DNA of 64,000 bases from Escherichia coli (lineage in GTDB: Bacteria; Pseudomonadota; Gammaproteobacteria; Enterobacterales; Enterobacteriaceae): NCBI RefSeq assembly GCF_002854065.1, contig NZ_CP024147.1. One strand, 5' to 3'. Shown piece by piece: positions 4,588-61,401 of this stretch. Positions within the stretch are counted from its first letter, which is position 1. The number at the start of each line of letters is the position of its first letter. A model generated the notes under the pieces. The model saw only the letters and a list, made by a program, of their open reading frames with translations. It did not search any database and was not told the DNA's origin. Made by a program: the position numbers and the translations under genes.

Positions 4588-6909
4588 ATGAAAAAATTAA
4601 CCATAGGCTTAATTGGTAATCCAAATTCTGGCAAGACAACCTTATTTAACCAGCTCACTGGCGCACGTCAGCGTGTAGGTAACTGGGCTGGCGTTACCGT
4701 CGAACGTAAAGAAGGGCAATTCTCCACCACCGATCATCAGGTCACGCTGGTGGACCTGCCCGGCACCTATTCTCTGACCACCATCTCATCGCAGACCTCG
4801 CTCGATGAGCAAATCGCCTGTCACTACATTTTGAGTGGCGACGCCGACCTGCTGATTAACGTGGTGGATGCGTCTAACCTTGAGCGTAACCTGTACCTGA
4901 CGCTACAACTGCTGGAACTCGGCATTCCCTGCATCGTGGCACTGAACATGCTCGACATTGCCGAGAAGCAAAATATTCGTATTGAAATTGATGCTCTGTC
5001 GGCGCGTCTTGGCTGCCCGGTGATCCCGCTGGTTTCAACCCGTGGTCGCGGTATTGAAGCGCTCAAGCTGGCGATTGATCGCTATAAAGCTAACGAGAAT
5101 GTGGAACTGGTGCATTACGCACAGCCGCTGCTCAACGAAGCAGATTCACTGGCAAAAGTGATGCCTTCCGACATCCCGCTGAAACAACGTCGCTGGCTGG
5201 GCCTGCAAATGCTGGAAGGCGATATCTACAGCCGCGCCTACGCCGGTGAAGCGTCGCAGCATCTTGATGCCGCCCTCGCCCGTCTGCGTAATGAGATGGA
5301 CGATCCGGCGCTGCACATTGCCGATGCGCGTTACCAGTGCATTGCTGCCATCTGTGATGTGGTAAGCAACACCCTGACGGCAGAACCCAGCCGTTTCACC
5401 ACTGCGGTAGATAAAATCGTGCTCAACCGTTTCCTCGGTCTGCCGATTTTCCTCTTTGTGATGTACCTGATGTTCCTGCTGGCTATCAACATCGGCGGGG
5501 CGTTACAGCCGCTGTTTGACGTCGGCTCCGTGGCGCTATTTGTGCATGGTATTCAATGGATTGGCTACACGCTCCACTTCCCGGACTGGCTGACTATCTT
5601 CCTCGCCCAGGGCTTGGGTGGCGGTATTAACACCGTGCTGCCACTGGTGCCGCAGATCGGCATGATGTACCTGTTCCTCTCCTTCCTTGAGGACTCCGGC
5701 TATATGGCGCGTGCAGCGTTTGTGATGGACCGCCTGATGCAGGCGCTGGGCTTGCCGGGGAAATCCTTTGTGCCGCTGATCGTCGGTTTCGGTTGTAACG
5801 TACCGTCGGTAATGGGTGCACGTACACTTGATGCACCGCGTGAACGTCTGATGACCATCATGATGGCACCGTTTATGTCCTGCGGCGCGCGTCTGGCTAT
5901 CTTCGCAGTATTCGCGGCTGCCTTCTTCGGGCAGAACGGTGCGCTGGCGGTCTTCTCGCTGTATATGCTCGGTATCGTGATGGCGGTGCTGACTGGCCTG
6001 ATGCTCAAGTACACCATCATGCGCGGTGAAGCGACGCCGTTTGTCATGGAGCTGCCGGTCTACCATGTACCACACGTTAAAAGCCTGATTATCCAGACCT
6101 GGCAGCGTCTGAAAGGCTTCGTTCTGCGTGCTGGTAAAGTGATTATCATCGTCAGCATTTTCCTGAGCGCTTTCAACAGCTTCTCGTTGAGCGGGAAAAT
6201 CGTCGATAACATCAACGACTCGGCGCTGGCTTCCGTCAGCCGGGTGATCACCCCGGTCTTCAAGCCGATTGGCGTGCATGAAGATAACTGGCAGGCAACA
6301 GTTGGCCTGTTTACGGGTGCAATGGCGAAAGAAGTGGTGGTGGGTACGCTCAACACCCTCTACACCGCAGAAAATATTCAGGACGAAGAGTTCAATCCGG
6401 CGGAATTTAACCTCGGTGAAGAGTTGTTCAGCGCGGTAGATGAAACCTGGCAGAGCCTGAAGGACACCTTCAGCCTTAGCGTACTGATGAACCCCATTGA
6501 AGCTAGCAAAGGCGACGGCGAAATGGGTACCGGGGCGATGGGCGTGATGGATCAGAAATTCGGTAGCGCAGCTGCCGCATACAGCTACCTGATTTTCGTC
6601 CTGCTGTATGTACCGTGCATCTCGGTGATGGGAGCCATCGCCCGTGAATCAAGCCGTGGCTGGATGGGCTTCTCCATCCTGTGGGGGCTGAATATCGCTT
6701 ACTCACTGGCAACATTGTTCTATCAGATCGCCAGCTACAGTCAGCACCCAACTTACAGCCTGGTGTGCATTCTGGCGGTTATCCTGTTTAACATCGTGGT
6801 TATCGGTCTGCTGCGCCGCGCGCGTAGCCGGGTGGATATCGAACTGCTGGCAACCCGTAAGTCGGTAAGCAGTTGCTGCGCAGCCAGCACCACCGGTGAT
6901 TGCCATTAA
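4588..6909 (+). CDS. feoB: Ferrous iron transporter FeoB (773 aa), N-terminal G-domain plus polytopic membrane domain
   Basis: ORF 4576..6909; start set at [21 protein letters not shown] (G1 P-loop motif). Confidence 0.96.
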
Positions 6910-58860: not shown

Positions 58861-60177
58861 TTAAGACTTCGTCGATTTCTCAAAGCGGCGCAGTAACTGG
58901 TTCCCACGCTCAACGGCGGTATCCAGTGCCTGCTGCGGTGTCTTCTTACCGGTCCACACGCTCTCCAGCTCTTCATCCACAATCACGCGGATCTGCGGCA
59001 TGTTGCCCAGACGCAGCCCTTTGGTGAACGGCAATGGCGGCTTGTTCAGCATCTGACGCGTCGCGGTATCCGCCCCTGGGTTTTTCTCATAAAAGCCCTG
59101 CTCACGAGTCAAGTCATACGCCGCTTTGGTGATTGGCAGATAACCAGTTTTCTGATGCCACTCGGCAGCATTTTCTGGCTTAGCGAGGAAGTCGAGGAAC
59201 TTCGCCACGCCGGTATAAGTTTCTTTATCTTTGCCCTGCATCACCCACAGGCTGGCCCCGCCGATAATGGCGTTTTGCGGTGCATCTTTCGCATCGGCGT
59301 CGTAAGGCATCATGCCTACGCCATAGTTGAATTTGGCGTACTCGCGAATATTAGCGAGAGAACCGGAAGAGGCGGTGGTCATCGCGCAATCACCGTTATA
59401 GAACTTCTCGGTGGATTCATCCTTACGCCCGACGTAGCTGAAATCGCCCTTCTTGTTCATCTCTTCGAGCATGGCGATGTGTTTCACCTGCTCCGGCTTG
59501 TTGAACTCCAGCACCGCATCCGTGCCGTCAAAGCCGTTGTTTTTGCTGGCAAACGGCAGACCGTTCCAGGCGCTAAAGTTTTCCAGTTGGATCCAGCCCT
59601 GCCAGCCGCTGGCGTAGCCGCACTTCATTCCGGAGGCTTTCAGTTTTGCAGAATAGTCCGCCAGATCCTGCCAGGTTTTCGGCGGCTGTTCCGGGTCTAA
59701 TCCTGCTTTCTTGAAGGCGTCTTTGTTGTAATAGAGAACGGGGGTCGAGCTGTTGAATGGCTGGGAGAGTAAGTGGCCGGTTTTGCTGTCGGAGTAGTAA
59801 CCGGAAACCGTCGGCACAAACTGCGACTCATCGAATTGAATCCCCGCCTCTTTAAACACGTCATATACCGGTTTAATGGCTTTCGACGCCATCATGGTGG
59901 CGGTGCCAACTTCATAAACCTGCAAAATAGCCGGAGCGTTGCCGGTACGAAATGCGGCAATCCCCGCGCTTAAATTCTGTTCGTAGTTGCCTTTATAGGT
60001 CGGTACAATTTTGTAATCCGGGTTTTCGGCGTTAAAACGTTGGGCCAGAGAATCCACCTCTTTACCCAGTTCCCCTTCCATAGAATGCCAGAACGGAATG
60101 GTCGTCACTGCCTGTGCATTCCCCATTAACGCCAGTCCGAGCGCCAGTGCTGAAGCTGTATAATGTAACGGTTTCAT
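58861..60177 (-). CDS. ugpB: sn-glycerol-3-phosphate-binding periplasmic protein UgpB (438 aa)
   Basis: 438-aa [41 protein letters not shown]... Confidence 0.96.
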
Positions 60178-60314: not shown

Positions 60315-60536
60315 GCGGTGACGGTACGGGTGAGGGAAAATGGGAGATGGGGCACGGATATCCCGAGAATGCACTGAAAAGAGGCGATTAACGGCCAGCT
60401 AATCGCCAGAACTCCTTACCATGAAGAGCAAAAATGGCAGCAAATTCTGCGTCCAGTTTTGCTGCCCGATGAGAGCTACATTTTTCAATTTTAACAAAAG
60501 ATTGCCGCGACACTGGTCTAACGGCAAAGAAGATTT

Positions 60537-61283
60537 TCATTGCACCACACTCTGCTTCAACCGTTCATTGGCGGTCTTAATCCATTCCCGGTGGTGTTTT
60601 CTATAATGAGGTCTTGAGCGTTTAGCCGTATCAACTACAGCAACATACTGCTCGTTGGCTTCACGTAACCGACTCATTTTCGCCAACATTTCCGCATAGT
60701 AAATACGCGCCTGCGGGCCGGGGTAATAAGAAATCAATACTTCAAACTCGCTTTCCGCATCAGCGTATTTTTCTTGTGCGGCTAACGTTCTGGCAAATAA
60801 CAAATGCCCGTCTGCCGACTGAAAATCAGGGTTATAACGCATCACATCTTCCAGCGTCTGCTGACAGGCGGCGAACTCCTGAATAGCAAACTGTGCCTGC
60901 GCCAGGCTTAGCATCATTGCCGCTTCATGGGCGAATATCCCGCTTAACGCCTGCTGATAATGGGGAACGGCTTCGTGGTAACGCTCCAGACGCGCCAGCT
61001 CGTTGGCAAGTTGATAGTGGTTTTGATTGGTCTCGGCAATCGCCAGCTCTTCGGTTAATTTGCGCAGGTGACGTTCCGGATTGATTTTGTCCTGCAGGCG
61101 CATCAGAAAGGTACGCCCGTGACGGTCAGCGCCCGTTTCTGGCAGCATCACCATGACAAAATACGCCACGCAACCAATCACCGGAAAACAGAAGATGATA
61201 AAAAACCAATATCGCTCTTGTCCGGTACGGTAAGCGTGGATACAGCAAAGCATTTCAAGCATGGCGACAACGGCATAATGCAT
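60537..61283 (-). CDS. Hypothetical membrane-anchored protein: N-terminal two-helix PLDc_N-like anchor plus cytoplasmic TPR-like helical repeats (248 aa)
   Basis: ORF MHYAVVAMLEMLCCIHAYRTGQERYWFFIIFCFPVIGCVAYFVMVML... (W...FP.IG...Y pattern), then alpha-helical repeats rich in A/L/Q/E/Y; GGAAAGG SD-like sequence upstream. Confidence 0.55.
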   Translation of the reverse strand: MHYAVVAMLEMLCCIHAYRTGQERYWFFIIFCFPVIGCVAYFVMVMLPETGADRHGRTFLMRLQDKINPERHLRKLTEELAIAETNQNHYQLANELARLERYHEAVPHYQQALSGIFAHEAAMMLSLAQAQFAIQEFAACQQTLEDVMRYNPDFQSADGHLLFARTLAAQEKYADAESEFEVLISYYPGPQARIYYAEMLAKMSRLREANEQYVAVVDTAKRSRPHYRKHHREWIKTANERLKQSVVQ

Positions 61284-61365
61284 GGGAGGGAACCTTTCCG
61301 TGGCAAATAAGTGGTCTGGTTTTAATCCTCCCGGTCAGTTGAAACAAGTCTGTATACGGACGAAT

Positions 61366-61392
61366 AACCCGGCAGAACTTAGCTGCCGGGTT
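61366..61392 (-). terminator. Hairpin downstream of livF
   Basis: AACCCGGCAG-ctaagtt-CTGCCGGGTT perfect 10-bp inverted repeat just after the livF stop; no clear U-tract. Confidence 0.4.
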
Positions 61393-61401
61393 ATTGATAA
61401 T

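Follow-up and report, generated by a model that had tools for sequence, protein, structure and literature searches.

LapB/YciM, HemY and YfgM are inner-membrane adaptors in which an N-terminal membrane anchor is followed by a tetratricopeptide repeat (TPR) or TPR-like domain. LapB/YciM has, in addition, rubredoxin-like metal-binding CxxC pairs that lie C-terminal to its TPR repeats. An anchor of another type is found in the cardiolipin synthase ClsA, where two transmembrane domains (TMDs) form a hairpin ahead of the catalytic domain. [quoted passage not shown] A linker of charge +3 serves as a retention signal that blocks translocation of the domain, and the addition of two Glu residues flips it. 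The lipid-dependent inversion needs the native two-TMD hairpin, for which the LepB hairpin is no substitute; P48 and G51, the conserved "PxxG" of the second transmembrane domain, are dispensable for flipping (PMC11698083).

We have analysed a gene of Escherichia coli that joins elements of both designs. In the reading we prefer, to which we give a probability of roughly 0.6, it encodes a non-enzymatic TPR docking protein of the inner membrane, made up of a PLDc_N-type hairpin, an amphipathic helix and a cytoplasmic domain of four TPR repeats; the gene is ancestral and stands alone. It lies on the minus strand between livF and ugpB, where an earlier note on this DNA had placed an ORF of 248 aa. 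The features of the locus are listed below by their positions in the window, by which we mean the whole stretch of 64,000 nucleotides that was analysed.

58861..60177: ugpB, flanking gene
60361..61401: variable allele segment of 1041 bp; K-12 has a 215-bp REP-containing filler here instead, other strains phd-doc
60373..60407, minus strand: terminator-like hairpin, 10 pairs followed by TCTTTT
60388..60498, minus strand: Phd/YefM antitoxin remnant, C-terminal half, residues 38-74 (tblastn E 4e-9, 46% identity)
60537..61283, minus strand: TPR-protein CDS, complete from its ATG start, 248 aa and TGA stop
60540..61079, minus strand: TPR domain, residues 69-248 (Pfam, PDB matches, AlphaFold)
61080..61127, minus strand: basic amphipathic linker helix, residues 53-68 (charge statistics, hydrophobic moment, AlphaFold)
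61128..61283, minus strand: PLDc_N-type hairpin, residues 1-52 (Pfam, conservation, ClsA alignment, hydropathy, AlphaFold)
61284..61362, minus strand: 5' leader and candidate promoter region (sequence comparison, promoter scan)
61293..61299, minus strand: Shine-Dalgarno (SD)-like GGAAAGG, 9 nt before the ATG (read from the sequence; kept in Escherichia orthologues)
61363..61395, minus strand: livF-proximal hairpin, 13-bp stem and 7-nt loop, starting seven bases past the livF stop codon
61402..62115: livF, flanking gene

The ORF is a real, conserved gene. It is the orthologue of WP_000558842.1 of O157:H7, and the two CDSs are identical or near-identical. Where E. coli carries the gene, in 12% of genomes, RefSeq names it "tetratricopeptide repeat protein", and the counterpart in O157:H7 Sakai (ECs_4300, NP_312327.1) is labelled "hypothetical protein". 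The earlier note, with some doubt, knew of no annotated gene at this position in K-12, and K-12 indeed has none; in the carriers the gene is annotated. Pairwise Nei-Gojobori comparisons among the window, O157:H7, two cryptic Escherichia lineages and E. whittamii gave dN/dS ratios of 0.07-0.14, and 0.23 for one close pair, at dS values of 0.10-0.37; by this measure the gene is under purifying selection. The Citrobacter freundii orthologue, for which dS is saturated, retains 75% amino-acid identity to the window protein. Its 248 codons match the length in the window, in O157:H7 and in two other Escherichia lineages, and the start position is kept in 133 of 145 homologues. GC3 is 54%, below the 63-72% of the flanking transporter genes, which suggests that the gene is expressed at a low level.

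Homologues are numerous. Among 1.84 billion representative proteins, a profile search matched 637 clusters with E<1e-30 and, at the looser limit of E<1e-10, 1879; the top 150 matches are nearly all 243-255 aa long and align end to end. The earlier note had allowed that the ORF might be spurious and lack conserved homologues; with at least 637 clusters at E<1e-30, it is instead one member of a proteobacterial family that has no curated model and no characterised member. Outside the Enterobacteriaceae the gene occurs in the Pseudomonas mendocina/alcaligenes group, in Lysobacterales, Nevskiales and Thiotrichales, and in Bradyrhizobium, Rhodopseudomonas and other Alphaproteobacteria. One UniRef entry of the family is named "Cardiolipin synthase N-terminal domain-containing protein", so the combination of PLDc_N and TPR has already been recognised by machine. 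Literature searches for ECs4300 and for guessed EDL933 Z-tags returned nothing relevant and no study of the protein, and PF13396 was mentioned solely in a paper on the SHOCT domain. In the literature and databases searched, the protein is annotated generically and characterised nowhere. The family has been overlooked because the gene is missing from the laboratory strain, though it is present in O157:H7 and other pathogenic lineages.

The N-terminal region had been described from the sequence as two short hydrophobic helices with a W...FP.IG...Y pattern. The pattern is there (W26...F33-P34-x-I36-G37...Y41); the hydrophobicity of both helices holds less well. Helix 2 (residues 25-51, containing W26, P34-x-x-G37 and Y41) is strongly hydrophobic, with a 19-residue Kyte-Doolittle mean of 2.6 in the window sequence, compared with about 1.0 for helix 1 (residues 2-19, with conserved Q/E10 and H16). 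Helix 1 is thus marginally hydrophobic, which makes the presence of two transmembrane helices uncertain. The helices are joined by a basic loop with the consensus [RK]19-T-G-R22, which averages 2.15 K/R across the family; the tail ahead of helix 1 has about 4 residues and no charge. Among 145 diverse homologues, the set used for the conservation and PLDc_N statistics, W26, G37 and Y41 each occur in 144, H16 in 142, P48 in 139 and P34 in 133.

This region resembles PLDc_N, as the earlier note had suspected. The window protein itself matches PF13396 over residues 26-43 with 16.3 bits (E 0.0099), short of the gathering cut-off of 23.3. Because its own score is sub-threshold, we base the assignment on the family, in which 89 of the 145 homologues match at E<=0.01 (best E 4.7e-7), and on an in-register alignment with the second TMD of ClsA. 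Residues 38-59 of ClsA from E. coli K-12 align with an HMM of the first 75 columns of the family (17.1 bits), such that W26, P34, G37 and Y41 correspond to ClsA W40, P48, G51 and Y55. The two proteins share the helix 2 motif W-x7-P-x2-G-x3-Y, and two hydrophobic helices with this motif in the second are the mark of PLDc_N. A PDB sequence search with the N-terminal 76 residues returned noise only (for example, connexin at E 0.08).

Beyond the hairpin, the linker helix is amphipathic, with a hydrophobic moment of 0.60 over residues 54-67, and the surrounding segment 47-75 averages 6.2 K/R and 3.2 D/E across the family, a net charge of about +3. The remainder, foreseen as a soluble alpha-helical TPR-like domain, matches TPR_19 (PF14559) with 36.4 bits against a Pfam cut-off of 25 and belongs to the TPR group, whose fold is a superhelix of helix pairs. 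AlphaFold models reached a pLDDT of 87.8 with 19 sequences and of 96.5, with pTM 0.85, when 145 were supplied. The modelled anchor consists of helices at 2-19, 25-51 (kinked at P34) and 54-67. The modelled TPR domain begins with an N-terminal cap helix (71-82), continues with four pairs (86-112, 121-150, 157-186 and 191-222) and is closed by a basic C-terminal capping helix (225-247) that includes W234. The high pTM means that anchor and TPR domain are predicted to form a single rigid body. At two groove positions the Escherichia clade departs from residues otherwise conserved in the family, E191 being replaced by Q and R195 by Y. Cysteines occur at 13, 14, 32, 38 and 140 only, and Cys140 is the sole one in the TPR domain. 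A PDB search with the whole-family profile returned generic TPR matches only, among them LbcA (PA4667). The sequence contains no H.K....D, the HKD catalytic motif, and no PLDc Pfam domain.

The protein is like ClsA in having two hydrophobic helices with a basic loop between them, the helix 2 motif and a linker of net charge about +3 (PMC11698083). It differs from ClsA in carrying a TPR domain in place of the PLD/HKD catalytic domain, and in a shorter helix 1 with a conserved Q/E and an invariant His. Membership of the cardiolipin synthase or PLD superfamily is rejected, since the two HxKxxxxD (HKD) motifs in PLD domains that define it are lacking; the TIGR04265 score is 12.6, where 290 is the cut-off, and the match covers residues 24-99 only. 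With LapB, HemY and YfgM it shares the plan of a membrane anchor and a TPR adaptor and lacks the defining features of each; unlike them it has a PLDc_N type of anchor, and with 248 aa and four repeats it is much smaller. It is not LapB/YciM, as it has no CxxC motif, nor HemY, for which TIGR00540 scores 16.6 against a cut-off of 142 and no HemY_N domain is found. CpoB/YbgF was likewise rejected (TIGR02795, 30.4 bits against 90.1). The soluble or lipoprotein TPR adaptors CpoB/YbgF, MamA, LbcA and PilF show generic repeat similarity, at 10-20% identity, and none has a PLDc_N anchor.

The gene is absent from K-12, as had been expected: the livF-ugpB gap of MG1655 measures 398 bp and is gene-free. 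Homology of the flanks with K-12 ends on the livF side right behind the stop codon and on the ugpB side at ...GGGGCACGGATA, a point 183 bp upstream of that gene, and these breakpoints are identical in every allele of the gap. In a census of 5426 complete E. coli genomes, the TPR-gene allele was found in 659, the K-12-type 215-bp REP-containing filler in 4630 and the phd-doc allele in 107; roughly 30 genomes fall outside these types. Carriers of the TPR gene include O157:H7, O55:H7, O145 and ST38. The TPR-gene allele always sits on the chromosome, as a single copy in 658 of the 659 carrier genomes. The filler (L002 1762-1976) contains REP-type palindromes and itself matches a median of 11 places per E. 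coli genome, and a search of it for traces of the TPR gene gave chance 8-9-mers only. Gene loss is associated with this REP/BIME-bearing replacement, which also brings a new livF-proximal hairpin.

The order livF-TPR gene-ugpB is found in Citrobacter sp. NCU1, Pseudocitrobacter, E. whittamii, E. albertii and the cryptic Escherichia clades. Given this synteny across Escherichia, Citrobacter and Pseudocitrobacter, the gene is ancestral at the site and K-12 represents a loss. Comparison of these sequences thus places the gene between livF and ugpB since before the Escherichia/Citrobacter split and implies its loss from about 88% of E. coli. In C. freundii, livF is followed by the TPR orthologue, two small ORFs, phd, doc and ugpB. 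Its nucleotide homology to the window (69%) runs from livF across the intergenic region and the gene, while the phd-doc part is homologous to the E. coli phd-doc allele. The co-occurrence of the TPR gene and phd-doc in C. freundii suggests that an ancestral array was larger and has been lost differentially, and the phd remnant in the window supports decay from an array of the Citrobacter kind. In E. albertii NBRC 107761 (L016, 6001-6743), a frameshift near codon 185 leaves a truncated ORF of 202 aa, which could be a pseudogene or an error in the type-strain assembly. The loss from 88% of E. coli and this frameshift indicate that the gene is dispensable.

The region between livF and the start codon bears on how the gene may be expressed. 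The SD-like sequence noticed earlier is indeed present, and so is the hairpin next to livF. As no T-run follows it, this hairpin is at best a weak terminator, and a terminator scan made no call there. Upstream of the gene, Escherichia species share a block of about 80 bp with hardly any differences, and C. freundii retains part of it; a consensus scan found no sigma-70 promoter between livF and the start codon. Expression probably comes from liv transcripts that read through the weak livF-proximal hairpin, or from a weak non-consensus promoter of the gene's own, which would lie in this upstream block. The transcript probably ends at the hairpin at 60373..60407, immediately ahead of the ugpB promoter region, which is retained. 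In E. whittamii, an insertion of about 400 bp separates the livF-proximal hairpin from the conserved block of about 85 bp before the TPR start (L015, about 5520-5930).

Should the gene be cargo of a toxin-antitoxin or defence islet, it might act with an adjacent Phd/Doc module, and the phd-doc that follows it and two small ORFs in C. freundii would then be significant, as would the location of the gene in a multi-allele hotspot. In the window, the phd remnant forms the last 37 residues of a 50-aa ORF (60388-60540, minus strand), identical in O157:H7, whose ATG overlaps the TPR stop codon (ATGA). The remnant falls short of a full-length antitoxin of about 73 aa with its N-terminal DNA-binding half, and no doc homology accompanies it. 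We clustered the ORFs of 80 loci and scanned with Pfam the 139 immediate neighbours at 70 non-Escherichia loci. No conserved neighbour emerged: the commonest Pfam family occurs in 5 of the 139 flanking ORFs, which renders guilt by association uninformative, and no toxin-antitoxin or defence family recurs beside the gene. No PADLOC-DB family matched at E<=1. Moreover, the gene is found without a phd remnant in E. whittamii and Escherichia sp. E1V33, and phd-doc is found without the gene in E. coli strains. The census largely refutes a role as islet cargo, which we regard as very improbable. Less credible still, and by a wide measure, is that the ORF is spurious or a decaying pseudogene. Its absence from 88% of E. 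coli, the frameshifted E. albertii orthologue, the low GC3 and the lack of a consensus promoter would agree with decay, but a dN/dS of about 0.1, a length of 248 codons that O157:H7, two further Escherichia lineages and C. freundii share, 637 homologous clusters and a pLDDT of 96.5 speak against it. For the window copy we reject it on the grounds of dN/dS, family size and model confidence.

The alternatives that deserve more weight concern topology. Orientation is ambiguous from sequence because the loop and the linker after helix 2 are both basic, and Sawasato, Dowhan and Bogdanov discuss the same charge ambiguity for ClsA (PMC11698083). It is unlikely, if a good deal more plausible than islet cargo, that the same architecture is inserted the other way round, with helix 2 as a signal-anchor and the TPR domain acting as a periplasmic envelope factor like CpoB/YbgF, YfgM or LbcA. 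The basic [RK]-T-G-R loop directly before helix 2 does resemble a signal-anchor n-region, the hydrophobicity of helix 1 is marginal, and periplasmic TPR proteins appear in the searches, with LbcA (PA4667) among the sequence matches and tol_pal_ybgF as the best, though weak, NCBIfam match. Yet YbgF reaches 30.4 where its cut-off demands 90.1, the TPR matches are all generic, and the 29 residues after helix 2 have the net charge of about +3 that blocks domain translocation in ClsA (PMC11698083). On the strength of this net-positive segment and of the analogy with ClsA, a cytoplasmic TPR domain is most likely, and we would favour it over a periplasmic one by about two to one. A further possibility, improbable in our estimation, ties the protein to the state of membrane lipids: its hairpin might let it sense anionic or non-bilayer lipids or invert as ClsA does, or might pair with the ClsA hairpin and modulate cardiolipin synthesis. 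The TMD2 motif common to both proteins, in register, would suit this idea, as would a charge layout like that of ClsA (basic loop and +3 linker) and the need of ClsA inversion for its own hairpin rather than that of LepB (PMC11698083). The argument is one of analogy, however, and small proteins of many unrelated kinds also bear PLDc_N (Pfam description; PMC3581485). The 70 loci show no genomic link with cls or any other lipid gene, and the PxxG shared with ClsA is not needed for flipping (PMC11698083).

Our preferred reading of a cytoplasmic docking protein would work as follows. The two-helix hairpin of the ClsA kind would anchor the protein in the inner membrane, with the TPR domain on the cytoplasmic face like the domain of ClsA. 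Hairpin and basic amphipathic helix together would fix the four-repeat TPR groove at the membrane surface, and this groove, lined with polar residues conserved in the family, may dock a partner protein or peptide. Such a docking role is, judging from the architecture, the most likely one; genome context, literature and source annotations point to no partner.

The downstream side of the gene and the wider liv region hold other small insertions. In Escherichia sp. MOD1-EC7003 (L012, downstream of 5802), the TPR gene is followed by another ORF, again with an ATGA overlap, that looks by eye like a putative SMI1/KNR4-type protein; it lends further support to the downstream side as a cargo site. In O157:H7 Sakai (L091, 26978-27778), ECs_4307 and ECs_4308, an acetyltransferase and antitoxin-component pair, lie between panM and livJ and constitute a second small accessory, toxin-antitoxin-like insertion near the liv genes. 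The livF-ugpB gap itself appears as one chromosomal site with alternative ancestral cargoes, namely the TPR gene, phd-doc and the REP filler, which have been differentially lost by lineage.

The TPR gene defines a small, clean and widespread proteobacterial family that has neither a curated model nor a studied member. Its hairpin could conceivably be a portable, lipid-responsive topological switch that moves the TPR domain from cytoplasm to periplasm upon PE depletion or osmotic down-shock, as has been shown for ClsA, or a partner of the ClsA hairpin that tunes cardiolipin synthesis; we rate this specific proposal as slightly less probable again than a general tie to lipid state. Were either version true, the function of a non-enzymatic protein would depend on the lipid state of the membrane; under the first, the family would be a second natural client of the hairpin. 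In the TPR protein, a ClsA-type hairpin has been reused on a non-enzymatic TPR domain. With one native cysteine in its soluble domain, the protein may offer a simple second test case for lipid-dependent topology dictated by the hairpin.
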